NCBI RefSeq assembly: GCF_054482595.1
Contig: NZ_CM137008.1
Reading direction: 5' to 3' (one strand)
DNA length: 64,000 nt
Part shown: positions 6,654-64,000 of the stretch, in pieces
How the letters are laid out: the number at the start of each line of letters is the position of its first letter
How positions within the stretch are numbered: the first letter of the stretch is position 1
Translations under genes and position numbers: made by a program
Notes under the pieces: generated by a model
Database searches by the model: none
Told to the model about the DNA's origin: nothing
What the model saw: only the letters and a program-made list of their open reading frames with translations

Positions 6654-6676
6654 TTGCAGAAAAGCGAGAGGTAATT

Positions 6677-7276: not shown

Positions 7277-7301
7277 TTAGCCAGGTAACACAGTGTTATG
7301 A

Positions 7302-7331: not shown

Positions 7332-7334
7332 GGG

Positions 7335-10259
7335 GTGAATATGGCAGTAAAGATTTCAGGTGTACTGAAAGACGGCACAGGAAAACCGGTTCAGAACTGC
7401 ACAATCCAGCTGAAAGCAAAACGTAACAGCACCACGGTGGTGGTGAACACGCTGGCCTCAGAAAATCCGGATGAAGCCGGGCGTTACAGCATGGACGTTG
7501 AGTACGGTCAGTACAGCGTTATTCTGTTGGTGGAAGGATTCCCGCCGTCACATGCCGGGACCATCACCGTGTATGAAGATTCCCAACCCGGTACGCTGAA
7601 TGATTTTCTCGGTGCCATGACGGAGGATGATGCCCGTCCGGAGGCTCTGCGCCGTTTTGAACTGATGGTGGAAGAGGTGACGCGTAACGCGTCCGCGGTG
7701 GCACAGAACACGGCAGCCGCGAAGAAGTCAGCCAGTGATGCCGGCACATCTGCCCGTGAGGCGGCAACCCATGCGACTGATGCTGCAGGCTCAGCGCGTG
7801 CAGCCAGCACGTCAGCCGGACAGGCCGCGACTTCGGCTCAGGAGGCGTCTTCCAGCGCAGGAACGGCATCAACAAAGGCCACTGAAGCATCAAAAAGTGC
7901 TGCCGCTGCAGAGTCCTCAAAAAGCGCGGCGGCCACCAGTGCCGGTGCGGCGAAAACGTCAGAAACGAATGCTGCAGCGTCACAAAAATCAGCAGCCACT
8001 TCTGCATCCACTGCGACGACGAAAGCGTCAGAAGCCGCCACTTCAGCCAGAGATGCGGCGGCCTCCAAAGAGGCGGCAAAATCATCAGAAACGAACGCCT
8101 CCACAAGCGCCAGCAGTGCAGCCTCCTCGGCAACGGCGGCAGGAAATTCCGTGAAGGCGGCAAAAACGTCCGAGACGAATGCCAGGTCTTCTGAAACGGC
8201 AGCGGAACAGAGCGCCTCAGCTGCGGCAGACTCTGAGACAGCAGCTGCATCATCGGCCCGTGAGGCGTCCATTAAGGCAGAGGAGGCAGCAGTCAGTGCC
8301 ACCGCCGCCGGAAAATCGGCAGAAAGCGCCGCATCATCCGCTTCAACAGCCACAACGAAGGCTGGCGAAGCCACTGAACAGGCCAGCGCAGCAGCGAGGT
8401 CTGCTTCCGCAGCGAAGACATCCGAAACGAACGCGAAAGCGTCGGAAACCAGCGCAGAATCCTCAAAAACGGCTGCCGCATCGTCCGCCAGTTCGGCGGC
8501 GTCATCGGCATCATCTGCGTCTGCTTCAAAAGATGAGGCGACCAGACAGGCGTCAGCAGCGAGGGGCAGCGCCACGACGGCATCCACGAAGGCGACAGAG
8601 GCTGCTGGCAGTGCGGCAGCGGCAGCACAGAGCAAAAGTACGGCGGAATCCGCGGCAACGCGCGCCGAGACAGCAGCAAAACGGGCAGAGGATATTGCAT
8701 CCGCCGTGGCGCTTGAGGATGCGAGCACGACGAAAAAGGGGATAGTACAGCTCAGCAGTGCGACCAACAGCACTTCCGAGTCACAGGCGGCAACGCCAAA
8801 AGCCGTTAAGGCCGCGTATGACCTGGCTAACGGGAAATACACCGCACAGGATGCAACGACAGCACAGAAAGGGATAGTTCAGCTCAGCAGTGCGACTAAC
8901 AGCACTTCCGAGTCACAGGCGGCAACGCCAAAAGCCGTTAAGGCCGCGTATGACCTGGCTAACGGGAAATACACCGCACAGGACGCTACGACAGCACAAA
9001 AAGGAATTGTCCAGCTCAGTAGTGCAACCAACAGCACATCTGAAACGCTTGCTGCGACACCGAAAGCAGTGAAAGCAGCTAATGACAATGCGAATGGTCG
9101 GGTACCTTCTGCCCGTAAGGTGAATGGTAAGGCGCTTTCAGCGGATATAACACTGACGCCGAAAGATATTGGTACGCTTAACTCAACAACAATGTCATTC
9201 AGCGGTGGTGCTGGTTGGTTCAAATTAGCAACGGTAACCATGCCACAGGCGAGTTCTGTTGTTTCAATTACGTTGATTGGTGGCGCTGGATTTAACGTGG
9301 GGTCACCTCAACAGGCAGGTATATCTGAACTTGTTTTACGTGCAGGTAATGGTAATCCGAAGGGGATTACTGGTGCTTTATGGCAGCGCACATCGACAGG
9401 GTTTACAAATTTTGCCTGGGTCAATACATCTGGTGATACTTACGATATTTACGTTGCAATCGGAAATTATGCGACTGGTGTAAATATTCAATGGGATTAT
9501 ACCAGTAATGCCAGCGTGACGATTCATACGTCACCAGCATATTCTGCTAATAAGCCGGAAGGGTTAACGGACGGTACAGTTTATTCACTCTATACGCCAT
9601 CAGAGCAGTTTTATCCGCCTGGCGCACCAATCCCGTGGCCATCAGATACCGTTCCGTCTGGCTATGCCCTGATGCAGGGGCAGACTTTTGACAAATCTGC
9701 CTACCCGAAACTTGCAGCCGCTTATCCGTCAGGCGTGATCCCTGATATGCGTGGCTGGACGATTAAGGGCAAGCCCGCCAGTGGTCGTGCCGTATTATCT
9801 CAGGAACAGGACGGCATTAAATCGCATACCCACAGTGCCAGTGCATCCAGTACGGATTTGGGGACGAAAACCACATCGTCGTTTGATTACGGCACTAAAT
9901 CCACGAATAACACCGGAGCGCACACCCATAGTGTCAGTGGTACGGCTGCTTCTGCAGGGGCACATACACACACGGTTGCCTGTTACCCATCTGGCAATAC
10001 CGAGCAGGGCGATAAAGCCCTCAAAGGTGCGTCTCGTGCAGGCTCGAGTACTGGCACATCGTCAGCCGGAGCGCATACCCACCCGGTGTCAGGTACTGCT
10101 GCAAGTGCAGGTGCACACGCGCATACTGTCGGTATTGGTGCTCATACGCACTCCGTTGCGATTGGCTCACACGGACACACCATCACCGTTAACGCTGCTG
10201 GTAACGCGGAAAACACCGTCAAAAACATCGCATTTAACTATATTGTGAGGCTTGCATAA
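7335..10259 (+). CDS. stf: Side tail fibre protein (Stf-like) with Ala/Ser/Thr-rich shaft, 44-aa tandem repeats and His-rich C-terminal repeats
   Basis: 974-aa ORF; N-terminus resembles lambda Stf; long low-complexity A/S/T region; three 44-aa repeats; C-terminal GAHTHxV repeats. Confidence 0.85.
8739..9134 (+). repeat. Three tandem copies of a 132-bp (44-codon) unit inside stf; copies 1 and 2 nearly identical, copy 3 diverged
   Basis: Units begin at 8741, 8873 and 9005 (gatagtacagctcagcagtg... / gatagttcagctcagcagtg... / gaattgtccagctcagtagtg...); each encodes [25 protein letters not shown]. Confidence 0.85.
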
Positions 10260-10843
10260 TGGCATTCAGAATGAGTGAACAACCACGGACCATAACAATT
10301 TATAATCTGCTGGCCGGAACTAATGAATTTATTGGTGAAGGTGACGCATACATTCCGCCTCATACAGGTCTGCCAGCAAACAGTACCGATATTGCACCGC
10401 CAGATATTCCGGCTGGCTTCGTGGCTGTTTTCAACAGTGATGAGGCATCGTGGCATCTTGTTGAAGACCATCGGGGTAAAACAGTTTATGACGTGGCATC
10501 AGGGAACGCGTTATTTATTTCTGAACTCGGCTCATTACCGGAAAATGTTACCTGGTTATCCCCGGCAGGGGAGTTTCAGAAGTGGAACGGCACAGCCTGG
10601 GTGAAGGATACGGAAGCAGAAAAACTGTTCCGGATCCGGGAGGCGGAAGAAACAAAAAACAGCCTGATGCAGGTAGCCAGTGAGCATATAGCGCCGCTTC
10701 AGGATGCTGTAGATCTGGAGATCGCAACGGAGGAAGAAAACTCGTTGCTGGAAGCCTGGAAAAAGTATCGGGTGTTGCTGAACCGTGTTGACACATCAAC
10801 TGCACCTGATATTGAGTGGCCGGAAGAACCAGACACAATGTAA
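10259..10843 (+). CDS. tfa: Tail fibre assembly protein (Tfa)
   Basis: 194-aa ORF resembling lambda Tfa; its ATG overlaps the stf stop (TAATG). Confidence 0.9.
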
Positions 10844-20663: not shown

Positions 20664-21292
20664 TATGTATTCCCTTGTGATTATAATCTTCATGAATATA
20701 TCAATAAGTGCCGTTATCCAAAAAAAAGCACATTTGGATACTATTCTATGAAGTTCATTTTATTTTAAAGATTACATGTAACAAATGTATTTAAAAGATT
20801 TCAAAATGTTTCTAATCTATTTAATATAATTTAGAATTATGAATTCTAAATATAAATATTCATGAAAATTATAAATGTATATCAATATGTTATGAGTTGA
20901 GCGGAAGCATAGGGGGTATCAATGATTGTTGCGCCAAACGGCTGGTGTGATCACGCGCACATTAATGAAGGCATAAAAAAAAGCCGGCATCATGCCGGCC
21001 CAAAAAATATAAACAAGACGATAAAAGGCTAATAACGGAGGCATCATGACACAGAAAAATAAAAAGGTATAATTGTATTCAGTGCTAATATATTGATTAA
21101 ATGAATTAATAAAGCCGATCTCAAAGATAAATAAAATCGCTCAAAACGATTTTTCCTGTATTCACTGCCGTTGCGCAAAAATTATCTATTTGTTCAAAAA
21201 ATGAGTGAGTCTTGACTGGCTCATCCAATGTGGAAAAATGTGACTTTTATCACATAATAGTACTAAGTCTGAATTTTCCGGGTTATCTCAAA

Positions 21293-29420: not shown

Positions 29421-29508
29421 AACACATCAGATTTCCTGGTGTAACGAATTTTTTAAGTGCTTCTTGCTTAAGCAAGTTTAATCCCGACCCCCTCAGGGTC
29501 GGGATTTT
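29421..29508 (+). ncRNA. dsrA: DsrA small regulatory RNA (Hfq-dependent; activates rpoS translation, antagonises hns)
   Basis: aacacatcagatttcctggtgtaacgaattttttaagtgcttcttgcttaagcaagttt.atcccgaccccctcagggtcgggattt matches DsrA as I recall it (one possible mismatch); ends in a GC hairpin plus U-tract. Confidence 0.9.
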
Positions 29509-45159: not shown

Positions 45160-45591
45160 CTAACCAGGTGTTTGCTGTTGTTCAATGTATTGGCGGATGA
45201 CGGATATTGGCGCACCTCCGCAGCTACTGGCAAAATAGCCGGGACTCCACAAAACGCCTTTGTAGTAATACCTGACTGCAATATCTGGTCGATCTCGTCG
45301 CAGTAATCTACCCGATACGCCTTTGAGGCTGTTTACCAGACTGGATATCGCCAGTTTGGGAGGATAGTTAATTAACAAATGGACGTGATCTGGTTCGCCA
45401 TCCATTTCAACCAGTTCAGCTTCAAAATCAGCACATACATTTGAAAAGTAAGTGCGTAGTTTTTCTGTCGCGTCATGGTCAAAAATCTGACGTCGGTATT
45501 TGGTGACAAAGACCAGGTGAACATGCATCAGGAAAACACAGTGCCTTCCACGCCGGATATCGGTTTCTTTTTTCACAGACCAAAGTATCAT
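45160..45591 (-). CDS. tnpA: IS200-type Y1 (HUH) transposase TnpA
   Basis: HVHLL HUH motif and C-terminal tyrosine region (YYYKGVLWSPGYFASSCGGAPISVIRQYIEQQ); the true start may be an internal Met. Confidence 0.85.
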   Translation of the reverse strand: MILWSVKKETDIRRGRHCVFLMHVHLVFVTKYRRQIFDHDATEKLRTYFSNVCADFEAELVEMDGEPDHVHLLINYPPKLAISSLVNSLKGVSGRLLRRDRPDIAVRYYYKGVLWSPGYFASSCGGAPISVIRQYIEQQQTPG

Positions 45592-45598
45592 TTGGCCT

Positions 45599-46417
45599 GT
45601 GAAACGACTACAAGCATTTAAATTCCAGTTAAGACCCGGTGGTCAACAGGAGCGTGAAATGAGGCGCTTCGCAGGCGCATGTCGTTTCGTTTTCAATCGT
45701 GCTCTGGCGCTTCAGAATGAGAATCATGAGGCCGGTAATAAATACATCCCTTACGGGAAAATGGCTTCCTGGTTGGTTGAGTGGAAAAACGCCACTGAAA
45801 CGCAATGGCTTAAAGATTCGCCCTCACAGCCATTGCAACAGTCACTGAAAGACCTTGAGCGGGCTTACAAAAACTTCTTCCAGAAGCGGGCTGCTTTTCC
45901 CCGATTCAAAACGCGGGGACAGAATGATGCATTCCGCTACCCGCAGGGCGTTAAGCTCGATCAGGAAAACAGCCGTATTTTTCTGCCGAAACTTGGCTGG
46001 ATGCGCTACCGGAATAACCGTCAGGTCACGGGTGTTGTGAAAAATGTCACTGTCAGCCAGCCGGGGCGCAATGTCCGGGCAAAATCAGGTTTAAACCGTT
46101 CGATACTGGATCAGGGCTGGTATGAAATGCGCCGTCAGCTTGAGTACAAGCAGCTCTGGCGTGGCGGTCAGGTGCTTGCTGTTCCGCCAGCGTACACAAG
46201 CCAGCGTTGCGCGTGCTGTGGTCATACAGCGAAAGAAAATCGCCTGTCACAAAGTAAATTCAGATGCCAGGTATGTGGATATACAGCGAACGCCGATGTA
46301 AATGGCGCTCGTAACATTTTAGCGGCGGGGCACGCCGTTCTTGCCTGTGGAGAGATGGTGCAGTCAGGCCGCTCGTTGAAGCAGGAACCCACCGAAATGA
46401 TTCAGGCGACAGCCTGA
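45599..46417 (+). CDS. tnpB: TnpB-like protein with apparent internal deletion of the RuvC-I/RuvC-II core; predicted nuclease-inactive
   Basis: 272 aa versus the usual ~400; N-terminus typical of TnpB (QAFKFQLRP...[15 protein letters not shown]); C-terminus keeps the CxxC..CxxC zinc finger and an ADVNGARNI RuvC-III-like motif; no GxDxG/E segment in between. Confidence 0.7.
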
Positions 46418-46456
46418 ACGTAGCAGGGATCCACGTCCTTCAGGGCGTGGAGGATG

Positions 46457-47128
46457 TCAACAAACAGGTTGAATTAACTCCGCGCCCTGGTTTTTGACAT
46501 TACCTACCGCGCGCGATACCGGGTGCCAGGTGAACTGGTTTGCTGGCACACAGCCACTGGCAGCGATTTCTGAGGCTTCTTTACCACCAATGTCTTGCCG
46601 CATCCATTCCCGCGCAGCTTCTGGCGACAGTACCAGCGGGCGGCGGTCATGAATATCTACCAGACCCTGGTCTGCTGCTGCAGTGACAATTAAAAATCCT
46701 TCGGCTTCGTCACCACGCTCAAACGGTGTGCTACCTATCGCGGCCATAAAAACAGGTTGTCCATCAGCGCGATAGATAAAATAAGGCTGTTTTTTGTCGC
46801 CTTCTTTTTTCCACTCAAACCAGCCATCGGCAAAACAGATTGCCCGACCATGTTGCCAGAGCGGTTTAAACATACGACTGGTTGCCGCAGTTTCTACGCG
46901 GGCGTTAATCAGCGGCGATTTATCCCACCATCCGGGAGCATATCCCCAGAAAACCGGATCCAGATGAAGGTGTTCATCACGTTCACTGAGCAGAAGAACT
47001 TTGGTTCCCGGCGCGACGTTGTATCTGCCAATGGGTTCGGGATCGTAGGGAATATCGCGTTCAATATCTTCCGCGAGAAGCGCAAGGTAATCTTCACGCG
47101 TTTGGGATTGGGCAAAGCGTCCACACAT
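46457..47128 (-). CDS. yedK: SOS-response-associated peptidase (SRAP/HMCES family; abasic-site DNA-protein crosslinking)
   Basis: 223-aa ORF beginning MCGRFAQ with the catalytic Cys at position 2. Confidence 0.9.
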   Translation of the reverse strand: MCGRFAQSQTREDYLALLAEDIERDIPYDPEPIGRYNVAPGTKVLLLSERDEHLHLDPVFWGYAPGWWDKSPLINARVETAATSRMFKPLWQHGRAICFADGWFEWKKEGDKKQPYFIYRADGQPVFMAAIGSTPFERGDEAEGFLIVTAAADQGLVDIHDRRPLVLSPEAAREWMRQDIGGKEASEIAASGCVPANQFTWHPVSRAVGNVKNQGAELIQPVC

Positions 47129-47236
47129 AGCAACCTCCTGAGATCATACTGAAAAGAATAGGAGAGGGGGCGGGTAAAATCTATGTGATACAGAGGTAAC
47201 GATGTTCCCGCTGTGGGACACAGCGGGAAGGAGGGA

Positions 47237-47470
47237 TTATTTCTGAATTAAATAACGAATGGTCGGCCCGTCTTGCTGAATATCCAGCACCGTATAGCCG
47301 TGATTACGCGCATCCAGTGGAATATTATTGATCGACTGCGGACAGTCGCTCACCACTTCCAGGATCTCACCTTTTTTTAATTGCGGCATCGCCTCAAGGG
47401 TTGCGACTGCCGGATAAGGGCAGGGTTCACCCACCATATCAAGGCGGTAATCAGGAACGATATTTTTCAT
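47237..47470 (-). CDS. yedF: TusA-like sulfurtransferase YedF
   Basis: 77-aa ORF with CPYP motif. Confidence 0.9.
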   Translation of the reverse strand: MKNIVPDYRLDMVGEPCPYPAVATLEAMPQLKKGEILEVVSDCPQSINNIPLDARNHGYTVLDIQQDGPTIRYLIQK

Positions 47471-48672
47471 GCGATCTCCTTAGCTGTCTGCGGTGCCGCA
47501 CGGCGGAAGAAGCGTTTTTCCCTGCCGATAATCAACATCAGCGCAGCAAACAGCAGCAAATATGTCACCAGCAGGCCACCCATCGGGCCAAAGGTTTTCA
47601 GGAGGTTGATTTTGTCCCAGTCGGTGGCCAGCGCCGGAGCGAAATCATCCCAGTAATACGCCAGAATCGTTGAGCCGATCACGTTGCCCAGACCGACCCA
47701 CCAGTAGTGCACCTGGCCTTCTACCGCGCGGTACATCCAGCCGGTTTCGCAACCGCCTGCCAGCACGATGCCAAAACCAAACAGTAAACCACCGATTACC
47801 GCGTTCGGCCCCGCCCACATGATTTTGGGTTCAACGCCTAACTGGACGTAACTGAAGATCCCGATGGCACTCACCGCCATACCGATAATGATTGCTTTCG
47901 CCATGTGGGTACGTCCGGTGATCCACATATCGCGGAACGCCGAAGTAAAGCAGATTTGTGCACGTTCAATCAGTAAACCAAAGCCGACGCCAAACAGCAT
48001 TGCCAGCCCCAGTTTTGGTTGGTTCATCGCCGTCAGCAGCGCCCAGCCCAGCATGCCGAAAAAGACCAGCATCCCGAGACGAAAACGACGCCGCGCCTGA
48101 TCCGGTTTTTGCGTCAACGGTGAGGCAGCAGAAACTTTCTGCATTTTCACGGGAATACGGAAGATGGGCAGCAGGGTAAAGCGCGCGCCAAACCATGAAC
48201 CAATGGCAGTGGCGATGGCAAAGAACCAGGCGTGCAGCGAGAACTGTGGAATGCCGGTAAAGAACGCCGCCAGATTACAGCCCATTGCCAGACGTGCGCC
48301 AAAACCAGCGATAATACCGCCAATGATGGCCCGCATAATGCGGATACGGCTGCGCGGCATGCGCAGTTTGACATTGTTGGCCCACAGCGCTGCGGCAAAA
48401 CAGCCGCCAAACATACCGAGGATCATCATGCCGTCGATGCGGGTTAATGGCGATCCTTCCAGATGGATAATTTTAAAATAACCCCACTCTTCAGCATGGA
48501 CGCCGAACAGCTGCAGGAGCTGACCGCCCCAACGGGTAAATTCACCCGTGACAGCCCAAAAGGTGCCAGTGATGCCAAAGTAGTAAGTGGAGAGAATACC
48601 CGCCGCGATGACCGCAGGGATGGGTGCCCAGAATTTAATCAACCAGGCGTGTTTGAATTGCTGCCATGACAT
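47467..48672 (-). CDS. yedE: Selenium/sulfur-compound transporter YedE
   Basis: 401-aa polytopic membrane ORF; overlaps yedF by 4 nt. Confidence 0.9.
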   Translation of the reverse strand: MSWQQFKHAWLIKFWAPIPAVIAAGILSTYYFGITGTFWAVTGEFTRWGGQLLQLFGVHAEEWGYFKIIHLEGSPLTRIDGMMILGMFGGCFAAALWANNVKLRMPRSRIRIMRAIIGGIIAGFGARLAMGCNLAAFFTGIPQFSLHAWFFAIATAIGSWFGARFTLLPIFRIPVKMQKVSAASPLTQKPDQARRRFRLGMLVFFGMLGWALLTAMNQPKLGLAMLFGVGFGLLIERAQICFTSAFRDMWITGRTHMAKAIIIGMAVSAIGIFSYVQLGVEPKIMWAGPNAVIGGLLFGFGIVLAGGCETGWMYRAVEGQVHYWWVGLGNVIGSTILAYYWDDFAPALATDWDKINLLKTFGPMGGLLVTYLLLFAALMLIIGREKRFFRRAAPQTAKEIA

Positions 48673-48855
48673 GTATGTAGCCTCTGAACTCAGAAGGTTT
48701 GAAACAAGAGTCGCGAATCATACATCATGCAAATTTATTTTCGGGGTAATAATTCACAAAAATAATAGTTAGATCAAATTTCTCTCTGAACCTGGAAAGG
48801 CTGGCGACATCAGGGCTTTAATGCCACAATCCTCTTTTCTTCTCATGCAGGACGA

Positions 48856-49272
48856 ATGATGAAAAAACTCGCAATTGCAGGCGCGCTCATGTTGCTGGCG
48901 GGCTGTGCCGAAGTCGAAAACTATAACAATGTCGTGAAAACCCCCGCGCCGGACTGGCTGGCGGGCTACTGGCAGACCAAAGGGCCGCAACGTGCGCTGG
49001 TCAGTCCGGAAGCGATAGGCAGCCTGATTGTCACTAAAGAGGGCGATACCCTGGATTGCCGTCAGTGGCAGCGGGTGATTGCCGTGCCGGGCAAGTTGAC
49101 ATTGATGTCAGATGATCTCACTAACGTTACCGTAAAACGTGAGCTGTACGAGGTTAAGCGTGACGGTAACACCATTGAGTACGATGGTATGACGATGGAG
49201 CGTGTGGATCGCCCGACGGCAGAGTGTGCCGCCGCGCTGGATAAAGCGCCGTTACCGACGCCACTGCCGTAA
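48856..49272 (+). CDS. yedD: Lipoprotein YedD
   Basis: 138-aa ORF with lipobox (LLAGC). Confidence 0.85.
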   Translation: MMKKLAIAGALMLLAGCAEVENYNNVVKTPAPDWLAGYWQTKGPQRALVSPEAIGSLIVTKEGDTLDCRQWQRVIAVPGKLTLMSDDLTNVTVKRELYEVKRDGNTIEYDGMTMERVDRPTAECAAALDKAPLPTPLP

Positions 49273-49275
49273 TGA

Positions 49276-49302
49276 AATCTCCCCGGCTTGCCGCCGGGGA
49301 TG
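49276..49302. terminator. Shared hairpin between convergent yedD and amyA
   Basis: tctccccggc-ttgc-cgccgggga inverted repeat. Confidence 0.5.
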
Positions 49303-49305
49303 AAT

Positions 49306-50793
49306 TTAAATCACCTCTTCGATAACCCACACGCTGACGCTGCCGCCGTTGCAAAAGAAGGTCGCTTCGCCGTTTTCGTCGGTTACTACGCTCTCTTGCC
49401 GGTTCCCCAGAAAATCACGCCAGGTTTTATTGCCGTAATTCTCTCCCAGATGAATGGTTTTTTCGCCATCATCCCCGTTCGACATGACCACCACGCAGCC
49501 GGGATATTCGTCGGTGCCACTGCGGCTAAAGGCAATGCAGTTCGGATGGTCGAAAAATAACGTCTGTACACCGTGGGCGAAACGCTGACGGGCGAGAATT
49601 AACTCATCAAGCTGTTCGATTATTGGCATATCTATTGGATAGGTTTGCCCGTCACCACCGACATCTTCGTAATGCGCACCGTAGAGGTCCGGATAGAACA
49701 CCGAAGGAACGCCATTTTCCCGCAACAAAATTAGAGCATACGCCAGCGGTTTAAACCACGGTTCGACCGGCGCTTCGAGGGCTTGCAACGGTTGGGTGTC
49801 GTGATTGGCAACGAGCGTCACGGCGTGGAAAGGATCGGCTTCCACTAATGTACCCGTGAAAATCTGCGTCATGTCGTAGTCGCGCCCCATGCGCGATGCT
49901 TCATGGAATTTCATCTGCAGCGGCGCATCAAACAGCATGGTTTTGCCTTCCACCTGATCAATATACGTTTGCAGCTTATCAACTTCATGCGACCAGTACT
50001 CCGCCACAATAAACAGCGGCTTTGGCGCAACTTCTTGTACGTGTTCGATCCACTCTTTATAAAACCATGCCGGTATATGTTTGACCGCATCAAGACGAAA
50101 ACCGTCGCATTGCGTTTGTTCCATCACCCAGCGCGCCCAGTATTTAATCTCTTCCGTCACGGCATGATTGCGGAAATCGATATTCTCGCCCATCAGATAA
50201 TCGAAATTACCTAATTCATCATCAACCTGATCGTTCCAGCCTTCGCCGGTGTAGTCGTTAACAATTTTAAATATGCCATCTTCATCAGGGTTTTCGATAT
50301 GGTCGATACCGCTAAAACATTTGAAATCCCAGATAAACTGCGAGTATTGCCCGGCACGAGCGGGGAAGGTGTAACGCGTCCAGCCTTCACACTCAATGAT
50401 TTCTTCGTCAATTTGCGTACGGTCATCAGCATTTACACGCTGCACGCGAATAGCTTCTTTTTCATCCGCGCCCATTTTGTGGTTGACTACCACGTCCAAC
50501 AGCACCGCAATGTCATTACGTTTCAGAGCATCAATGGCGGCCAGCAGTTGTGCTTTATCGCCATATTTAGTGGGGATGCTGCCTTTCTGATCAAACTCGC
50601 CTAAATCAAATAAATCATAGGAGTCGTAGCCGACCGAATACCCGCCCGATGCGCCTTTATAGGCGGGCGGCAACCAGACCATATTGATACCAATATCATT
50701 AAAACCGTCGGCGCGCTCGGCCAGTTCAGGCCAGAGCTTACCGCCTTCCGGGTAATACCAGTGAAAACATTGTAACAGCGTGGGATTACGCAT
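49306..50793 (-). CDS. amyA: Cytoplasmic alpha-amylase AmyA
   Basis: 495-aa GH13 ORF ([18 protein letters not shown]...). Confidence 0.95.
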
Positions 50794-50870
50794 TCTTCGA
50801 CTCCATTCAAGGGGAACATTAGAAGCGTAGCCGTAATCGGATTATTCGCGAGCCATCGACTCATTCAGAT

Positions 50871-51236
50871 TCAAAAGAGGTTATCCTGCGGAGCCAGCAC
50901 AAAGCCGCCCTGATCGCCATAGGCACTTAACACCGATTTTTGCACCGATGACTGACCGACCAGTTTCGCCAGTTCATCCATCCGAATCTGTAATAACTGC
51001 TTTACCTTGCTTTCGTTGTCGAGAATCAGGCGCAGCATCGGGCGGAGCTGCTCCTGCATCGTGGTGGACGGGTCAATCTCTTCAGTCAAATGTGCAATCT
51101 CCTGCACCGCATTAACATACGCCATTTCGCTGGCGATGAGTTCGTCCCATTGTTCTTCCGTTGCCAGGCGTAACATGAGCTGGCTTTTTTCGACGAGTTG
51201 TTGCCAGGCGAAATACAAATGCGGTGCGTGGTTCAT
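50871..51236 (-). CDS. fliT: Flagellar chaperone FliT
   Basis: 121-aa ORF. Confidence 0.9.
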
Positions 51237-51646
51237 CAGACTGGGTCCTGAATCAAAGAAGGGGAGAGTAACGACTCTTTCCAGGCATCGGCAATATTGC
51301 GCATTAATGCTTCCACTTCTTCGACTGCGGAGACATCGTTGCGTAAATTGGCTTGCAGCAAGCGCCTGACCATATAGCTATAAAGAGCAATCAAGTTTTG
51401 GGTTAGTTCGTCTTTGCTCTCTTCATCAAGACTCACCCGCAGTCCGTTCTCAATGATGTTGATCGCTTTTGACAAAGAGACGCCTTTGCCTTGCTGATTG
51501 TTGTCCTGCATAAACAGGCGCGCTCTAACCAGTGCGCTCAGCACTCCATCAAATAGCATGGTGACCAGCTGCTGCTGGCTGGCGCTCATTACGGCGCTTT
51601 CGACGCCAATTTGTGCATAGGCTTTTGAGCCGCTCGCGGTATACAT
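51236..51646 (-). CDS. fliS: Flagellin-specific chaperone FliS
   Basis: 136-aa ORF. Confidence 0.95.
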
Positions 51647-51660
51647 GCTGACCTCCGTGA

Positions 51661-53073
51661 TCAGGAATTACTCATTGCAGTAAATTGTTGGCTGAGATAG
51701 GTACTGGTGTTATTCAGTTTGCTCATCATGGTATCTAATTGCGTAAACTGTGCAGTGTAACGCGCCACGGTGTCATCAATGCTGGCACTGACGGATAGAT
51801 ACTGTTTGGTCAGTTTTTTCAGTGTGGCGTTAATACTGTCCTGTGCGCTATCAATAATGCCATCATCGGCAAGGTAACCTTTTACCTCGGTGGCAATTTT
51901 GGTGGTAATTCCTGTTTCTTTACCATCGCCTACCAGCAATTCACGTACGGATGCTGTATTTTCATTCAGGACTTTTTTGAGTTTATCATCATCAATTTTC
52001 AGCTTACCCGTCGTGCCGTCCTGCTTAATCCCGATCTCGTTTAATGTTTTGAAGGCACTGTCGCTGGCACCGTTTGCAAATTGTGCGCGGATGCCGCTTT
52101 GAATTGTACGTACAACGCTGTCTCCGAGAAGTGCACCATTATTTTTATCTTGTGCTTCAGCACCTGGGTCTACTTCTTTATATTTTGTCAGGGTGTTAAA
52201 GGTGTCAATGAGGGAGTTATATGAATCCACCCAGCCTTTAATTGCTTCGGTTGCTTTATCGTTGCTTTTTGTCACCGTGACCCGGACGTCAGTGACTTTT
52301 TTGGTCAAATCGAGAGTCACTCCCTGAGGAGCATCGGTAATTTTGTTACTTGAACGTTCAATATCGATACCGTTAACGTTTAGCTGTGCATTTTGCGCGT
52401 TAACCAGTTCCTTCATATTCCCGGTGTTGGTCTTGCTGTCATAAGCCAGCAGATCATTTAATTTACTGTCACCCTCAACAGATATGGTCATTTTATTGGC
52501 CAGACCTTCACTGGCGGTCAATACCAATTGATAGTTACCATCTTTGACTTTAACGATACTAGCGGAAATTCCACTATCGGCATCGTTAATGGCTTTGCTG
52601 ATCTCATCCAATGACGTCTGATCTTTATTGAGCTTGATTTCCAGCGGCTCTTTACGACCGTCTTGGGTAATTTTTATTGTGCGTGTATCTGATGACTCAT
52701 CACCCAGTGCATCTTTTGTTGATGCAATGATTGTCGGGGAATCAGTTCGTAAAGATTGCGCCTGCGCCAGTTGGGTTACGCTGATGGTATAGATACCGGG
52801 AGCAGCACCTGCTTCGGTGGAAACTTTAAGGTCTTCATTGCTACTGGTAACGGTAGTGCTTTTGAACAGATCGGCTTTATTTAACGCAGTATTTGCAGTC
52901 TGGAATTTTTCTAATGCACTTTTTAATGTGCCATAGGCTGTCAGACGTGCGGTATTGTCACTCTGTTGCTGAGTAATTGGGTTTAAGCGTTTTTTTTCAG
53001 CGATGGTCAGGTTGTTTAGCAATGTATCCAGCGGCAGATTCGAACCAACGCCAAGAGATGTAAATGAAGCCAT
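51661..53073 (-). CDS. fliD: Flagellar filament cap protein FliD
   Basis: Internal ATG (MASFTSLGVGSNLPL...) with aggaa RBS gives about 470 aa; the ORF-track start at 53151 is an extension. Confidence 0.9.
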   Translation of the reverse strand: MASFTSLGVGSNLPLDTLLNNLTIAEKKRLNPITQQQSDNTARLTAYGTLKSALEKFQTANTALNKADLFKSTTVTSSNEDLKVSTEAGAAPGIYTISVTQLAQAQSLRTDSPTIIASTKDALGDESSDTRTIKITQDGRKEPLEIKLNKDQTSLDEISKAINDADSGISASIVKVKDGNYQLVLTASEGLANKMTISVEGDSKLNDLLAYDSKTNTGNMKELVNAQNAQLNVNGIDIERSSNKITDAPQGVTLDLTKKVTDVRVTVTKSNDKATEAIKGWVDSYNSLIDTFNTLTKYKEVDPGAEAQDKNNGALLGDSVVRTIQSGIRAQFANGASDSAFKTLNEIGIKQDGTTGKLKIDDDKLKKVLNENTASVRELLVGDGKETGITTKIATEVKGYLADDGIIDSAQDSINATLKKLTKQYLSVSASIDDTVARYTAQFTQLDTMMSKLNNTSTYLSQQFTAMSNS

Positions 53074-53111
53074 ACCTAATTCCTTTTGATTGCAAACAGT
53101 AGATAAGCGGG

Positions 53112-53138
53112 TTATCGGCAATTTGTGCGCAAAGTTTA
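53112..53138 (-). promoter_or_regulatory. Sigma-28 (FliA) class-3 promoter of fliDST
   Basis: Minus-strand TAAACTTT-N11-GCCGATAA matches the sigma-28 consensus. Confidence 0.8.
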
Positions 53139-53231
53139 ATAGTTGATTCACGAAGATGATGCGCAGAGTAGAGTTGTATATTACGGATATTTCAGCCGTT
53201 AAGAAAAAACAGGAGAGAAACTAAAATTTTC

Positions 53232-53258
53232 TAAAGTTCGAAATTCAGGTGCCGATAC
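53232..53258 (+). promoter_or_regulatory. Sigma-28 (FliA) class-3 promoter of fliC
   Basis: TAAAGTTC-N11-GCCGATAC about 70 bp upstream of the fliC ATG. Confidence 0.85.
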
Positions 53259-53327
53259 AAGGGGTACGGTGAGAAACCGTGGGCAACAGCCCAATAACAT
53301 CAAGTTGTAATTGATAAGGAAAAGATC

Positions 53328-54893
53328 ATGGCACAAGTCATTAATACAAACAGCCTGTCGCTGTTGACCCAGAATAACCTGAACAAATCTCAGTCTTCTC
53401 TGAGCTCCGCCATTGAACGTCTCTCTTCTGGCCTGCGTATTAACAGTGCTAAAGATGACGCAGCAGGTCAGGCGATTGCTAACCGTTTTACAGCAAATAT
53501 TAAAGGTCTGACTCAGGCTTCCCGTAACGCGAATGATGGTATTTCTGTTGCGCAGACCACTGAAGGTGCGCTTTCTGAAATCAACAATAACTTACAGCGT
53601 ATTCGTGAATTGTCAGTACAGGCCACTAATGGTACAAACTCTGACTCCGACCTGAATTCAATTCAGGATGAAATTACACAACGCCTTAGTGAAATTGATC
53701 GTGTTTCTAACCAGACACAATTTAATGGTGTAAAAGTTCTGGCTTCTGATCAGACTATGAAAATTCAAGTAGGTGCGAACGATGGTGAAACCATTGAGAT
53801 TGCCCTTGATAAAATTGATGCTAAAACCTTGGGGCTTGATAACTTTAGCGTAGCACCAGGAAAAGTTCCAATGTCCTCTGCGGTTGCACTTAAGAGCGAA
53901 GCCGCTCCTGACTTAACTAAGGTAAATGCAACTGATGGTAGTGTGGGAGGTGCTAAAGCATTCGGTAGCAATTATAAAAATGCTGATGTTGAAACTTATT
54001 TTGGTACCGGTAATGTACAAGATACAAAGGATACAACCGGTGCTGCAGGAACAAAAGTTTATCAAGTACAGGTGGAAGGGCAGACTTATTTTGTTGGTCA
54101 AGATAATAATACCAACACGAACGGTTTTACATTATTGAAACAAAACTCTACAGGTTATGAAAAAGTTCAGGTGGGTGGTAAGGATGTTCAGTTAGCAAAC
54201 TTTGGTGGTCGTGTAACTGCATTTGTTGAAGATAATGGTTCTGCCACATCAGTTGATTTAGCTGCGGGTAAAATGGGTAAAGCATTAGCTTATAATGATG
54301 CACCAATGTCTGTTTATTTTGGGGGAAAAAACCTAGATGTCCACCAAGTACAAGATACCCAAGGGAATCCTGTACCTAATTCATTTGCTGCTAAAACATC
54401 AGACGGCACCTACATTGCAGTAAATGTAGATGCCGCTACAGGTAACACGTCTGTTATTACTGATCCTAATGGTAAGGCAGTTGAATGGGCAGTAAAAAAT
54501 GATGGTTCTGCACAGGCAATTATGCGTGAAGATGATAAGGTTTATACAGCCAATATCACGAATAAGACGGCAACCAAAGGTGCTGAACTCAGTGCCTCAG
54601 ATTTGAAAGCCTTAGCAACCACAAATCCATTATCCAAATTAGACGAAGCTTTGGCAAAAGTTGATAAGTTGCGCAGTTCTTTGGGTGCAGTACAAAACCG
54701 TTTCGACTCTGCCATCACCAACCTTGGCAACACCGTAAACAACCTGTCTTCTGCCCGTAGCCGTATAGAAGATGCTGACTACGCAACCGAAGTGTCTAAC
54801 ATGTCTCGTGCGCAGATCCTGCAACAAGCGGGTACCTCTGTTCTGGCACAGGCTAACCAGACCACGCAGAACGTACTGTCTCTGCTGCGTTAA
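53328..54893 (+). CDS. fliC: Flagellin FliC; H-serotype not assignable by eye
   Basis: 521-aa ORF with conserved N- and C-terminal flagellin domains and a variable central region. Confidence 0.95.
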
Positions 54894-54910
54894 TTTACAC
54901 TTATCGCTCA

Positions 54911-54937
54911 AACCCCGCCACCGGCGGGGTTTTTTCT
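54911..54937 (+). terminator. Rho-independent terminator of fliC
   Basis: ccccgcc-accg-gcgggg hairpin followed by tttttt. Confidence 0.8.
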
Positions 54938-55057
54938 GCATGGAATTTACCGGTAACCCCCAAATAACCCCTCATTTCACCCACTAATCGTCCGATTAAA
55001 AACCCTGCAGAAACGGATAATCATGCCGATAACTCATATAACGCAGGGCTGTTTATC

Positions 55058-55777
55058 GTGAATTCACTCTATACCGCTGAAGGTGTAATGGATAAACACT
55101 CGCTGTGGCAGCGTTATGTCCCGCTGGTGCGTCACGAAGCATTGCGCCTGCAGGTTCGACTGCCCGCGAGCGTGGAACTTGACGATCTGCTACAGGCGGG
55201 CGGCATTGGGTTACTTAATGCCGTCGAACGTTATGACGCCCTACAAGGAACGGCATTTACAACTTACGCAGTGCAGCGTATCCGTGGCGCTATGCTGGAT
55301 GAACTTCGCAGCCGTGACTGGGTGCCGCGCAGCGTGCGACGCAACGCGCGTGAAGTGGCACAGGCAATAGGGCAACTGGAGCAGGAACTTGGCCGCAACG
55401 CCACGGAAACTGAGGTAGCGGAACGTTTAGGGATCGATATTGCCGATTATCGCCAAATGTTGCTCGACACCAATAACAGCCAGCTCTTCTCCTACGATGA
55501 GTGGCGCGAAGAGCACGGCGATAGCATCGAACTGGTTACTGATGATCATCAGCGAGAAAACCCGCTACAACAACTGCTGGACAGTAATCTGCGCCAGCGG
55601 GTGATGGAAGCTATCGAAACGTTGCCGGAGCGCGAAAAACTGGTATTAACCCTCTATTACCAGGAAGAGCTGAATCTCAAAGAGATTGGCGCGGTGCTGG
55701 AGGTCGGGGAATCGCGGGTCAGTCAGTTACACAGCCAGGCCATTAAACGGTTACGCACTAAACTGGGTAAGTTATAA
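55058..55777 (+). CDS. fliA: Flagellar sigma factor FliA (sigma-28)
   Basis: 239-aa ORF from a GTG start (MNSLYTAEGVMDKHSL...). Confidence 0.95.
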   Translation: MNSLYTAEGVMDKHSLWQRYVPLVRHEALRLQVRLPASVELDDLLQAGGIGLLNAVERYDALQGTAFTTYAVQRIRGAMLDELRSRDWVPRSVRRNAREVAQAIGQLEQELGRNATETEVAERLGIDIADYRQMLLDTNNSQLFSYDEWREEHGDSIELVTDDHQRENPLQQLLDSNLRQRVMEAIETLPEREKLVLTLYYQEELNLKEIGAVLEVGESRVSQLHSQAIKRLRTKLGKL

Positions 55778-55822
55778 CGTCAGTAAATGCCGCACTTTAA
55801 TTTTGACTACCAGGAGTTCTTA

Positions 55823-56374
55823 ATGATGGTGCAGCACCTGAAAAGACGGCCATTAAGCCGCTATCTTAAAGACTTTAAACACAGCCAGACTCATTGCGCG
55901 CATTGCCGTAAATTACTCGATCGCATTACCCTCGTTCGCGACGGCAAAATAGTGAATAAAATCGAGATTTCCCGCCTGGACGCGCTGCTTGATGAAAATG
56001 GCTGGCAAACGGAACAAAAATCATGGGCGGCATTGTGCCGATTTTGCGGTGATTTACATTGCAAAACGCAGAGTGATTTTTTCGATATTATCGGCTTTAA
56101 GCAATTTCTTTTTGAGCAAACTGAAATGAGCCCAGGTACGGTGCGTGAATATGTCGTTCGTTTGCGCCGTTTGGGGAATCATCTACACGAGCAAAATATT
56201 TCCCTCGATCCGCTGCAGGACGGTTTCCTTGATGAAATCCTCGCCCCGTGGCTGCCCACCACCAGCACCAACAATTACCGCATCGCATTACGGAAGTATC
56301 AACACTATCAGCGCCAAACCTGTACCGGACTTGTGCAGAAATCCTCCAGCCTGCCTGCTTCTGATATATATTAA
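55823..56374 (+). CDS. fliZ: Regulator FliZ
   Basis: Internal ATG (MMVQHLKRRPLSRY...) gives 183 aa. Confidence 0.9.
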   Translation: MMVQHLKRRPLSRYLKDFKHSQTHCAHCRKLLDRITLVRDGKIVNKIEISRLDALLDENGWQTEQKSWAALCRFCGDLHCKTQSDFFDIIGFKQFLFEQTEMSPGTVREYVVRLRRLGNHLHEQNISLDPLQDGFLDEILAPWLPTTSTNNYRIALRKYQHYQRQTCTGLVQKSSSLPASDIY

Positions 56375-56461
56375 ATAAGAATAAGATGTAGCGGAGTTGT
56401 TTTTGTGTTTACAAACAATGGATCTACACTGCAAACAGACATAACAACATTCGGGGTGAAT

Positions 56462-58353
<1,892 letters not shown>

Positions 58354-58367
58354 CTCCGGGAACGCTC

Positions 58368-59036
58368 ATGCAAGAAAGTATACAACTGGTTATTGATTCC
58401 TTGCCGTTCCTGTTGAAAGGGGCTGGGTATACCCTGCAACTCAGTATCGGCGGCATGTTTTTTGGCTTACTACTCGGGTTTATTCTCGCGCTGATGCGCC
58501 TGTCGCCAATCTGGCCCGTGCGCTGGCTGGCGCGTTTTTATATCTCTATTTTTCGTGGTACGCCGCTCATCGCACAACTGTTTATGATCTATTACGGCCT
58601 GCCGCAGTTTGGTATCGAATTAGATCCCATTCCGTCAGCAATGATTGGTCTGTCGCTGAACACTGCCGCCTATGCCGCCGAAACGCTGCGCGCCGCCATT
58701 TCTTCTATTGATAAAGGTCAGTGGGAAGCCGCTGCCAGTATTGGTATGACGCCGTGGCAGACCATGCGTCGCGCGATTTTGCCACAGGCGGCGCGGGTGG
58801 CGTTGCCGCCGCTGTCGAACAGCTTTATCAGTCTGGTAAAAGATACGTCGCTGGCCGCGACAATCCAGGTGCCGGAGCTGTTCCGCCAGGCGCAGTTGAT
58901 TACCTCGCGCACGCTGGAGGTGTTCACCATGTACCTGGCGGCTTCGCTCATCTACTGGATCATGGCGACAGTATTATCGACGTTGCAGAACCATTTTGAG
59001 AATCAACTTAATCGCCAGGAGAGAGAACCAAAATGA
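58368..59036 (+). CDS. tcyL: Cystine ABC transporter permease TcyL (YecS)
   Basis: 222-aa membrane ORF. Confidence 0.9.
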   Translation: MQESIQLVIDSLPFLLKGAGYTLQLSIGGMFFGLLLGFILALMRLSPIWPVRWLARFYISIFRGTPLIAQLFMIYYGLPQFGIELDPIPSAMIGLSLNTAAYAAETLRAAISSIDKGQWEAAASIGMTPWQTMRRAILPQAARVALPPLSNSFISLVKDTSLAATIQVPELFRQAQLITSRTLEVFTMYLAASLIYWIMATVLSTLQNHFENQLNRQEREPK

Positions 59037-59785
59037 GTGCCATTGAAGTTAAGAACCTGGTGAAAAAATTTCACGGTCAGACGGTGCTGCACGGTATCGA
59101 CCTCGAGGTAAAGCCTGGCGAAGTGGTGGCAATTATCGGTCCGAGTGGTTCCGGCAAAACCACGTTGCTACGCAGCATAAATCTGCTGGAACAACCGGAA
59201 GCGGGAACGATCACCGTTGGCGATATCACTATTGATACTGCACGTTCATTAAGTCAGCAAAAATCGCTGATTCGCCAGTTGCGTCAGCACGTCGGGTTTG
59301 TCTTCCAGAACTTTAATTTGTTTCCGCATCGTACGGTGCTGGAAAACATTATTGAAGGGCCGGTGATCGTCAAAGGCGAACCGAAAGAAGAGGCCACGGC
59401 GCGCGCTCGCGAGCTGCTGGCGAAAGTTGGGCTGGCCGGTAAAGAAACCAGCTATCCACGTCGTTTGTCTGGCGGTCAACAGCAGCGTGTTGCGATTGCG
59501 CGTGTGCTGGCAATGCGTCCTGAGGTGATTTTGTTTGACGAGCCAACGTCAGCGCTGGATCCAGAGCTGGTGGGCGAAGTCCTGAACACAATCCGCCAGC
59601 TGGCGCAGGAAAAGCGCACGATGGTGATTGTGACGCACGAAATGAGCTTTGCCCGGGATGTTGCGGACCGGGCGATTTTTATGGACCAGGGGCGGATAGT
59701 CGAGCAGGGGGCAGCAAAAGCGTTATTTGCTGATCCCCAGCAGCCTCGCACCCGCCAGTTCCTTGAGAAGTTTCTGCTGCAATAA
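59033..59785 (+). CDS. tcyN: Cystine ABC transporter ATP-binding protein TcyN (YecC)
   Basis: 250-aa ORF with Walker A (GPSGSGKTT) and LSGGQQQR signature. Confidence 0.9.
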   Translation: MSAIEVKNLVKKFHGQTVLHGIDLEVKPGEVVAIIGPSGSGKTTLLRSINLLEQPEAGTITVGDITIDTARSLSQQKSLIRQLRQHVGFVFQNFNLFPHRTVLENIIEGPVIVKGEPKEEATARARELLAKVGLAGKETSYPRRLSGGQQQRVAIARVLAMRPEVILFDEPTSALDPELVGEVLNTIRQLAQEKRTMVIVTHEMSFARDVADRAIFMDQGRIVEQGAAKALFADPQQPRTRQFLEKFLLQ

Positions 59786-60014
59786 TAAGAAAAAATCAGC
59801 CCCGACGATTCACCTGTCGGGGCGGGACGCCATTTCAAGCGTGATAAAACTGCTTAACAAATCAGCATAACTCATTAATAACATAAGAGAATGCGATGGC
59901 TTGCAAAAGTAATTCATTGCCTGAATAATATAAATTATATATAAATCTTATTTATGTGATAGTTTGAATTATCATTATAAATGATACTCACTCTCAGGGG
60001 CGTTGCGGTTTACT

Positions 60015-60737
60015 ATGCAGGATACGGATTTTTTCAGCTGGCGTCGCACGATGCTGTTGCGTTTTCAGAGGATGGAGGCCGCAGAAGAGGTCTACCATGA
60101 AATAGAGCTTCAGGCTCAGCAGCTGGAGTACGATTACTATTCGTTATGTGTTCGCCACCCGGTACCATTCACGCGACCTAAAGTGGCTTTCTACACCAAT
60201 TACCCTGAGTCGTGGGTTAGTTATTATCAGGCAAAAAATTTTCTCGCAATTGATCCTGTGCTGAACCCTGAAAACTTTAGGCAGGGCCATTTAATGTGGA
60301 ATGATGACTTATTCAGCGAAGCACAGCCATTATGGGAAGCCGCGCACGCACATGGTTTACGCCGCGGTGTCACTCAGTATTTAATGCTGCCAAATCGGGC
60401 GCTGGGCTTTTTGTCCTTTTCCCGTTGCAGCACGCGCGAAATACCCATTCTTAGTGATGAACTGCAATTAAAAATGCAGTTACTGGTGCGCGAAAGTCTG
60501 ATGGCTCTGATGCGTTTAAATGATGAAATAGTGATGACGCCAGAGATGAATTTCAGCAAGCGCGAAAAAGAAATTCTGAAATGGACGGCGGAAGGGAAGA
60601 CATCAGCAGAGATAGCGATGATTTTGTCAATCTCTGAGAATACGGTCAATTTCCATCAGAAAAACATGCAGAAAAAAATCAATGCACCAAATAAGACCCA
60701 GGTGGCCTGTTACGCGGCCGCTACTGGCTTAATTTGA
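60015..60737 (+). CDS. sdiA: LuxR-family quorum-sensing regulator SdiA
   Basis: Internal ATG (MQDTDFFSWRRTMLL...) gives 240 aa. Confidence 0.95.
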   Translation: MQDTDFFSWRRTMLLRFQRMEAAEEVYHEIELQAQQLEYDYYSLCVRHPVPFTRPKVAFYTNYPESWVSYYQAKNFLAIDPVLNPENFRQGHLMWNDDLFSEAQPLWEAAHAHGLRRGVTQYLMLPNRALGFLSFSRCSTREIPILSDELQLKMQLLVRESLMALMRLNDEIVMTPEMNFSKREKEILKWTAEGKTSAEIAMILSISENTVNFHQKNMQKKINAPNKTQVACYAAATGLI

Positions 60738-60764
60738 TCGCTTTTCTTTCTGCGTGCCAGATGC

Positions 60765-60802
60765 AAAAACCGGCTGAAAGGCACGCTCTCAGCCGGTTTT
60801 AT
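60765..60802. terminator. Bidirectional terminator between convergent sdiA and yecF
   Basis: ccggctga-(loop)-tcagccgg hairpin with an A-run before and a T-run after. Confidence 0.7.
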
Positions 60803-60803
60803 A

Positions 60804-61028
60804 TTACTGACGGTAGGCTTGTTTAATTTGCTTAACCGTTTTGGAAAATACTGCAGCCTGGGTTTCGTCTTCGATCAGCGCAAGCTGTTTTTCCATCTTT
60901 AACATCACGCGGCCCGCGTCAGCTTGTCCCATCGCCTGCAGCATCAGCGTCAGCATCGCTTTCAGGCAGGAGACTTCATTTGCCAGTTCTTGATTATTCT
61001 CGGCAGTAGAAAAATCAGGCGTACTCAT
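60804..61028 (-). CDS. yecF: Small protein YecF (DUF2594)
   Basis: 74-aa ORF ([26 protein letters not shown]...). Confidence 0.85.
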
Positions 61029-61486
61029 TTATTTTCCTCGTCATGTTGCAATGAAAATTTGCGGTGAAAAATGTTAAGGCGGCGGAGTATACCATAAGCT
61101 TTGCTAAAAATAGCAGTGGTTGTTTTTTGAGCGTATCGTCAACGGTGCTATTAAATGCGTTAATATAATGACCAATAAATATTTTTATCATGAATGTTTT
61201 TTGCCCGTATTGTTCGGGTTAATTAATGTTACATATTCAGCGGGCTGATTTTCATTTTTGCTGAATAAAGGTAATTTTTGTCACATTTCGTCGCAGGGCT
61301 TACTGTGAAACGATCCGGTAAGCCGTTGGTGACGGGCGTGACCATAACTATGGACAATCGAATTGACAAAAACGAGAGAAAAATCGAATACCCACCATTT
61401 TTAACGTTTCAAAGTTGCAATAAAAACCGCTAATATACGAATGACTAACTATCAGTAGCGTTATCCCTATTTCTGGAGATATTCCT

Positions 61487-62143
61487 TTGATCAACGTTCT
61501 ACTTGTTGATGACCACGAACTGGTGCGCGCAGGGATACGACGCATTCTGGAAGATATAAAGGGTATAAAAGTCGTCGGTGAGGCATCGTGCGGTGAAGAC
61601 GCCGTTAAGTGGTGTCGGGCAAATGCCGTTGACGTGGTGCTAATGGACATGAGTATGCCGGGCATTGGCGGTCTTGAGGCGACGCGTAAAATCGCGCGTT
61701 CCACAGCTGATGTCAAAATCATCATGCTTACCGTCCATACAGAAAACCCTTTACCAGCGAAAGTCATGCAGGCCGGTGCTGCGGGCTACCTCAGCAAAGG
61801 CGCGGCTCCGCAGGAAGTCGTGAGTGCGATTCGTTCTGTCTATTCAGGGCAGCGTTACATTGCTTCTGACATCGCTCAACAAATGGCGTTAAGCCAGATC
61901 GAACCAGAAAAAACAGAAAGCCCATTTGCCAGTTTGTCTGAACGTGAATTGCAGATTATGCTGATGATCACCAAGGGCCAGAAGGTCAATGAGATCTCAG
62001 AACAGCTCAATCTCAGTCCGAAAACGGTGAACAGCTACCGCTATCGTATGTTCAGTAAACTAAACATTCATGGCGATGTTGAGCTGACTCACCTGGCAAT
62101 TCGCCATGGTCTGTGTAATGCGGAGACATTATCAAGTCAGTGA
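61487..62143 (+). CDS. uvrY: Response regulator UvrY (BarA/UvrY two-component system)
   Basis: 218-aa ORF with receiver domain and LuxR-type HTH. Confidence 0.95.
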
Positions 62144-63972
62144 GTGATCAGTTTGACGCAAAAGCGTTTTTAAAAACCGTAACCAGCCAGCCAGGCGTTT
62201 ATCGCATGTACGATGCTGGTGGTACGGTTATCTATGTCGGCAAAGCGAAAGACCTGAAAAAACGGCTTTCCAGCTATTTCCGTAGCAACCTCGCTTCGCG
62301 CAAAACCGAAGCGCTGGTCGCCCAGATCCAGCAAATTGATGTAACGGTTACTCATACAGAAACCGAAGCGCTGTTGCTGGAACACAACTACATCAAACTC
62401 TATCAGCCGCGTTACAACGTTTTGCTACGCGATGATAAATCTTATCCTTTTATCTTCCTGAGTGGCGATACCCACCCGCGTCTGGCGATGCATCGTGGTG
62501 CGAAGCATGCCAAAGGTGAATATTTCGGCCCGTTCCCGAATGGCTATGCCGTACGTGAAACACTGGCGTTACTGCAAAAGATATTCCCCATTCGCCAGTG
62601 CGAAAATAGTGTTTATCGCAATCGCTCGCGTCCGTGTCTGCAATATCAGATAGGGCGCTGTCTGGGGCCGTGCGTTGAAGGACTGGTGAGTGAAGAAGAA
62701 TACGCTCAGCAGGTCGAGTATGTGCGCCTGTTTTTGTCTGGCAAAGATGATCAGGTGCTTACGCAACTCATTAGCCGTATGGAAACTGCCAGCCAGAATC
62801 TGGAGTTTGAAGAAGCGGCACGTATTCGCGACCAAATTCAGGCGGTGCGACGCGTCACCGAAAAACAGTTTGTGTCCAATACCGGCGACGACCTTGACGT
62901 TATTGGTGTGGCGTTCGATGCGGGCATGGCTTGTGTCCACGTATTGTTCATTCGTCAGGGTAAAGTGCTCGGCAGCCGCAGCTATTTCCCGAAAGTGCCG
63001 GGCGGTACGGAACTGAGCGAGGTGGTGGAAACCTTCGTAGGTCAGTTCTATTTACAAGGCAGCCAGATGCGCACCTTACCGGGTGAGATCCTGCTCGATT
63101 TTAATCTTAGCGATAAAACGCTGCTCGCCGATTCCCTTTCAGAACTGGCGGGACGCAAGATTAATGTTCAAACCAAACCTCGCGGCGATCGGGCGCGTTA
63201 TCTGAAACTCGCGCGCACCAATGCGGCGACGGCCTTAACCAGCAAACTTTCGCAGCAATCTACCGTTCACCAGCGACTGACCGCGCTTGCCAGCGTGTTG
63301 AAATTGCCGGAAGTAAAGCGGATGGAGTGCTTTGACATCAGCCATACCATGGGTGAACAAACCGTCGCCTCCTGTGTGGTATTTGATGCTAACGGCCCGC
63401 TGCGTGCGGAGTATCGGCGCTATAACATTACTGGCATCACGCCGGGCGATGATTATGCGGCGATGAATCAGGTGCTGCGTCGGCGTTATGGTAAAGCCAT
63501 CGACGACAGTAAGATCCCGGATGTGATACTTATCGACGGCGGCAAAGGCCAGCTTGCGCAGGCGAAAAATGTCTTCGCCGAACTGGATGTCTCATGGGAT
63601 AAAAATCATCCGCTGCTACTTGGCGTTGCCAAAGGAGTAGATCGTAAGGCTGGGCTGGAAACGCTGTTCTTTGAGCCGGAAGGTGAGGGATTCAGTTTGC
63701 CGCCAGATTCTCCCGCGCTGCATGTTATCCAGCATATTCGCGATGAATCACACGATCACGCGATTGGCGGGCACCGTAAAAAACGGGCGAAGGTCAAAAA
63801 TACCAGTTCCCTGGAAACCATTGAAGGCGTCGGGCCAAAACGCCGGCAAATGTTGTTGAAATATATGGGCGGTTTGCAAGGTTTACGTAACGCCAGCGTC
63901 GAGGAAATTGCAAAAGTGCCGGGTATTTCGCAAGGTCTGGCAGAAAAGATCTTCTGGTCGTTGAAACATTGA
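62140..63972 (+). CDS. uvrC: Excinuclease ABC subunit C (UvrC)
   Basis: 610-aa ORF with N-terminal GIY-YIG motif (GVYRMY...VIYVGKA); overlaps the uvrY stop by 4 nt. Confidence 0.95.
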
Positions 63973-64000
63973 TGTCTCTGTAGCAACATAGGGGTAATCT

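Follow-up and report, generated by a model that had tools for sequence, protein, structure and literature searches.

An Escherichia coli fliC gene assigned to flagellar type H16, in a derived short allele

The window, by which we mean the whole 64,000-nucleotide stretch of DNA that was analysed, contains at 53328-54893 on the plus strand an intact fliC open reading frame of 521 codons plus stop, with no interruption (ORF listing). The features of this gene and its immediate surroundings are as follows.

53232-53258, plus strand: predicted sigma-28 (FliA) class-3 promoter of fliC, TAAAGTTC - 11 nt - GCCGATAC (read from the sequence).
53328-54893, plus strand: fliC coding sequence, assigned to H16 flagellin, short allele (ORF, Pfam and protein identities).
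53340-53753, plus strand: Flagellin_N, residues 5-142, the conserved N-terminal helical region of the filament core D0/D1 (Pfam).
53754-54632, plus strand: central variable region, residues 143-435, H16-specific and surface-exposed, predicted to be all-beta (blastn, model).
54034-54037, plus strand: junction of a 9-bp in-frame deletion, GATACAAC / TGATGCGAC / CGGT (DNA alignment against the common H16 allele).
54042, plus strand: substitution, G here and A in the common H16 allele, changing Thr to Ala at residue 239 of 521 (alignment, gene position 715).
54633-54887, plus strand: Flagellin_C, residues 436-520, the conserved C-terminal helical region (Pfam).
54910-54935, plus strand: intrinsic terminator of fliC, hairpin AAACCCCGCC-ACC-GGCGGGGUUU followed by a U tract (folding, conservation in K-12).

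Both helical flagellin domains score far above their Pfam gathering cut-offs, Flagellin_N (PF00669) at 154.5 bits against 26.6 and Flagellin_C (PF00700) at 108.9 bits against 23, and both ends of the protein are common to many H types, in agreement with the sequence-only reading, which had described conserved N- and C-terminal domains. These conserved terminal helices (D0/D1) polymerise to form the core of the flagellar filament and serve as recognition targets for the export chaperone FliS and for TLR5; the middle of flagellin forms exposed outer domains over the filament surface, and it is these that bear the H-antigen epitopes. The segment that had been singled out as the serotype-determining centre, at about residues 160 to 440, corresponds at 53800-54650 to residues 158-441 and sits in, or slightly over, the central variable region. 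It is rich in G, T, N, D and K, as had been noted by eye (together 44.8% of residues 160-440 versus 32.1% in the termini), and the difference in length from the K-12 flagellin also holds, at 521 versus 498 residues (MG1655 fliC is 1497 bp). The G+C content of the central fliC DNA is 40.3%, versus 49.7% for the whole window. The position of the gene is that of fliC, divergent from fliDST and upstream of fliAZ, within a gene order of fliT-fliS-fliD on the minus strand and fliC-fliA-fliZ-tcyJ (fliY)-dcyD on the plus strand that matches both K-12 and strain Santai.

The predicted fliC promoter agrees with the sigma-28 consensus, TAAAGTTT-N11-GCCGATAA, at 7 of 8 positions in each of its two elements, and by its sequence qualifies as a class-3 promoter. 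A transcript would run from this promoter (53232-53258) to the hairpin at 54910-54935. A scan for consensus terminators did not return a fliC terminator at 54910-54935; folding confirmed a hairpin there (-18.5 kcal/mol, z = -4.4 versus shuffled sequences), and the same hairpin is kept in the K-12 fliC terminator. The fliC-fliA spacer (54894-55057) measures 164 bp versus 320 bp in K-12, and beyond the terminator hairpin and the fliA promoter region the two spacers have nothing in common; the roughly 155 bases without a counterpart here come from the K-12 fliC 3' UTR, of which they form the REP-like part, and comprise most of the annotated sRNA FliX (195 nt). Judging from the sequence, a FliX-like sRNA at the window fliC would be much shorter or absent.

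The H type had been left as beyond assignment by eye, with a database match expected to settle it; comparison with 5426 complete E. coli genomes led to H16. By megablast the central 851 bases match 137 of these genomes, all at 95% identity or higher, and word-11 blastn of the central region against the same 5426 genomes added none, returning no lower-identity matches and no other H type. Because the central region is confined to 137 genomes even with sensitive blastn, the variable region belongs, at the DNA level, to one H type only, which fits its description as the serotype-determining part. It is 100% identical to that of O157:H16 Santai, SM107 and AHM21C2872I, and 99.9% identical to that of three further records; for the large majority of the 137, O157:H16 98-3133 among them, the figure is 98.8%, one 9-bp indel and one SNP making the difference. 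Among the matching strains seen, those named with a serotype are O6:H16, O25:H16 and O157:H16, with one O25:NM. Searched at full length, the gene finds partial fliC matches in 2381 of the 5426 genomes, mostly over its first 30-46% and through the conserved ends; between its N-terminal part and the fliC genes of many other H types, DNA identity is 78-92%. As a whole it is 99.4% DNA-identical to fliC of ETEC TW10598 and of other O6:H16, O25:H16 and O157:H16 strains. Santai has been genoserotyped as O157:H16 and belongs to ST1011 (PMC5039186). With a central region nearly identical to that of H16 strains and distinct from those of all other H types, the window flagellin is typed as H16 on the strength of its sequence and of how database strains are labelled, some of these serotype labels being in-silico calls themselves. 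We hold it to be nearly certain that the window gene is the fliC of an E. coli chromosome, of the H16 type and in a derived, short H16 allele.

Exactly two DNA differences separate this allele from the common H16 gene (DNA alignment), namely a 9-bp gap and one SNP. The gap follows gene position 708 (window 54035/54036), its exact place being ambiguous owing to a 2-nt 'AC' microhomology. At the protein level, DTTDATGTAG in the common form aligns with DTT---GAAG in the window form, the lost residues being T-D-A or D-A-T depending on the alignment, and the Thr-to-Ala change two residues downstream of the deletion is the sole aligned column that is not invariant. The common allele reads GATACAACT GATGCGACC GGT ACT at this site (D-T-T D-A-T G T), an imperfect 9-bp tandem repeat, and the window allele reads GATACAACC GGT GCT. 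Losing one repeat unit (GATACAACT / GATGCGACC, DTT/DAT) at the 'AC' microhomology yields exactly the window sequence, so that the unit was most likely lost by slipped-strand mispairing during replication or by unequal exchange. In the outgroup flagellins (Atlantibacter hermannii and five others) the indel site is always occupied (TTDATG, TTNALG, KTDATG), and the substituted position is usually Thr or Gly; since these flagellins keep the three residues, the 521-residue form is the derived one.

The short allele is found in six complete genomes, two of them apparently of the same strain, and is thus in the minority among the 137 H16-carrying genomes. In the public collection the exact 521-residue protein is present on 298 contigs and listed in 465 blocks, and the 524-residue form is on at least 1000 contigs; clustering at 90% places both forms in a single cluster with 374 members. 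H typing by length or by PCR should take the short allele into account, as a minor caveat. Other length variants were seen in the H16 family, P0001 (467 aa) and P0027 (465 aa), of which P0001 is without about 57 central residues (after residue ~339), in frame. In STEC388 (NZ_CP041425.1) the H16 fliC match is split over two places in the genome, which suggests that its fliC carries an insertion.

Residues 160-440 alone gave no match to PDB sequences at E ≤ 0.01, and the whole protein matches Salmonella and E. coli filament structures with E-values near 1e-120; it is therefore the conserved ends that carry the apparently full-length alignments to Salmonella FliC. Residues 175-435, modelled with AlphaFold from only 8 sequences, come out as all-beta, with a mean pLDDT of 75.2 and a pTM of 0.56. 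The full-length model is poor (pLDDT 61.6, from only 8-9 sequences), and its Foldseek matches were set aside as evidence on the outer domain, the flagellins having been matched through their helices (TM ~0.18). In the model of the central region the deletion lies between strands E56-62 and E68-75 (protein residues 230-236 and 242-249) and can reasonably be placed in a hairpin loop; it would shorten this predicted beta-hairpin loop by three residues, with the Thr-to-Ala change adjacent.

Between 48675 and 64000 the window and Santai disagree over 15.3 kb at just two positions, 49999 and 59505, in a near-identical block that comprises amyA(3')-fliTSD-fliC-fliAZ-tcyJ-dcyD-tcyLN-sdiA-uvrYC; 46447-48674 contains 57 mismatches, and 1-46060 is about 97.1-97.4% identical. 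The identity breakpoint is sharp and lies near amyA/yedD, indicating that the H16 block was recently exchanged by recombination between otherwise distinct lineages; a breakpoint of this kind beside fliC is a routine case of H-antigen exchange by homologous recombination. Among the 5426 complete RefSeq E. coli genomes the best identity is 99.0% for 40000-64000 and 98.8% for 20000-44000, and the left flank has no match in any of four public contigs that carry the exact FliC protein.

Farther from fliC, the window holds the following features.

10602-10800, plus strand: IS009 RNA (Rfam gathering score, 222 bits).
20976-21065, minus strand: RseX (Rfam gathering score, 96.7 bits).
29421-29507, plus strand: DsrA (Rfam gathering score, 102.9 bits).
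45160-45591, minus strand: Y1-transposase ORF, 143 aa (IS200/IS605 remnant).
45599-46417, plus strand: TnpB-like ORF, 272 aa (IS200/IS605 remnant).

The three Rfam matches are sRNAs expected of the core genome here. The two ORFs make up an IS200/IS605-family remnant (45160-46417) between ybcM and yedK; Santai and other strains have a TnpB of 387-406 residues, and relative to Santai about 380 bp of sequence are missing here. The first part of the window (~1-10800) is colinear with lambdoid prophage tail genes of Santai (gpJ, Lom-family, tail fibre and tail-fibre assembly), beside yodB/zinT, and contains an internal 177-bp repeat (8735-8911 / 8868-9043) that is 92% identical to the Santai copies.

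Three other accounts of the gene were weighed. The 9-bp difference might be a sequencing or assembly artefact, the true gene being the common 524-residue H16 allele, and a short imperfect tandem repeat is indeed an error-prone context; but six complete genomes, assembled independently and originating from duck, pig, human and environment, have the identical allele, the exact protein recurs on the 298 contigs and in the 465 collection blocks given above, and the deletion always occurs together with the adjacent SNP, so that this account is effectively refuted and its probability negligible. The loss of three loop residues together with the Thr-to-Ala change could remove an H16 epitope and make this a new or serologically distinct H type, or an H16 subtype. 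The allele change does fall in a variable and presumably exposed region, in a predicted hairpin loop, and the allele is in the minority, 6 of the 137 complete genomes with H16 having it. The difference from the common H16 protein, however, amounts to only 4 of 524 positions, and recognised H types are far more divergent, the central regions of other types being undetectable by blastn. Even H1 and H12, which share 97.5% nucleotide identity, are reported to cross-react strongly (PMC4753304), and Santai, with exactly this allele, was typed H16 (PMC5039186). We consider a distinct H type very unlikely, and the short allele should retain H16 seroreactivity.

Less remote, though still improbable, is that the gene is intact yet cryptic and unexpressed, like the flagellin genes of non-motile lineages such as Shigella. 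H16-type flagellin sequences are on deposit as Shigella sonnei, and the left part of the window reaches only 98.8% in its best complete-genome match. Set against this, fliA, fliZ, fliD, fliS and fliT are full-length ORFs, the predicted sigma-28 promoter and the terminator are intact, window 1-40044 is colinear with the fliF-to-fliR region of Santai at 97.4% identity (flhDC and other flagellar regions lie outside the window), and the sequence deposited for S. sonnei, a long form carrying extra substitutions, is not the window allele. We infer that fliC is expressed from this locus. An origin of the window in S. sonnei was also considered and is unlikely, the H16-like flagellin of that species being the long form plus two extra substitutions and the window being colinear, without interruption, with the Santai fli region.

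Partial flagellins deposited as S. sonnei (P0023-P0028) belong to the 90% cluster that contains the 521- and 524-residue forms; P0028 has the long H16 form plus P177L and N472D (window numbering), from which it follows that flagellin sequences deposited under S. sonnei are H16-like. A Shigella/EIEC study that screened 136 O-untypable isolates found H16 to predominate among their H types (PMC8767346).

The preferred reading thus remains an E. coli fliC of type H16 in its short allele. The gene, its exact allele and its context are already in public databases, and there is nothing new about the allele. Major ETEC (O6:H16, O25:H16), atypical EPEC O157:H16 and STEC O118:H16 lineages have H16 flagella, and the H16 call helps to describe the source strain; its significance is otherwise small.

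The window protein was compared with known flagellins. K-12 FliC (H48, 498 aa) and Salmonella FliC and FljB (PDB 1UCU, 6JY0, 9GNZ) belong to the same family, with the same conserved D0/D1 ends, gene neighbourhood, terminator and fliA promoter region. Beyond the H16 cluster, the only sequences found to be related to the H16 variable domain were P0003 (partial), P0005-P0007, P0009 and P0010. The Atlantibacter hermannii flagellin (P0003), P0005 and P0007 are homologous in the central region over 84-95% of its length at 59-72% identity, and the shorter fragments P0006, P0009 and P0010 over 35-68% of its length at 59-72% identity. The flagellins of the A. hermannii group are too divergent for H16, and they keep the three residues deleted here. 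The N-termini of P0006, P0007, P0009 and P0010 (ENA/Logan contigs) resemble those of E. coli, with near-identity through residue 170, and at the sensitivity of blastn none of the four is present in the complete E. coli genomes; by their sequences they may represent untyped H16-related flagellin types of Escherichia or close relatives.

Closer still is the common 524-residue H16 allele (WP_000079829.1, in O6:H16 M9682-C1, O157:H16 98-3133 and ETEC TW10598), to which the window protein is identical at 520 of 524 positions in the protein alignment; these records have the same locus, the same 164-bp fliC-fliA spacer and the same FliA protein (WP_001087467.1), and the window allele differs from them in the absence of 9 bp (three residues) and in Ala for Thr. 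The match is complete with WP_040234762.1 of O157:H16 Santai (also in SM107, AHM21C2872I, W619 and 2018-10-1CC), at 521 of 521 residues and 1566 of 1566 bases. Outside 48675-64000 the window is only ~97% identical to Santai, so that the strain from which it comes is a different one, carrying the same flagellin allele.
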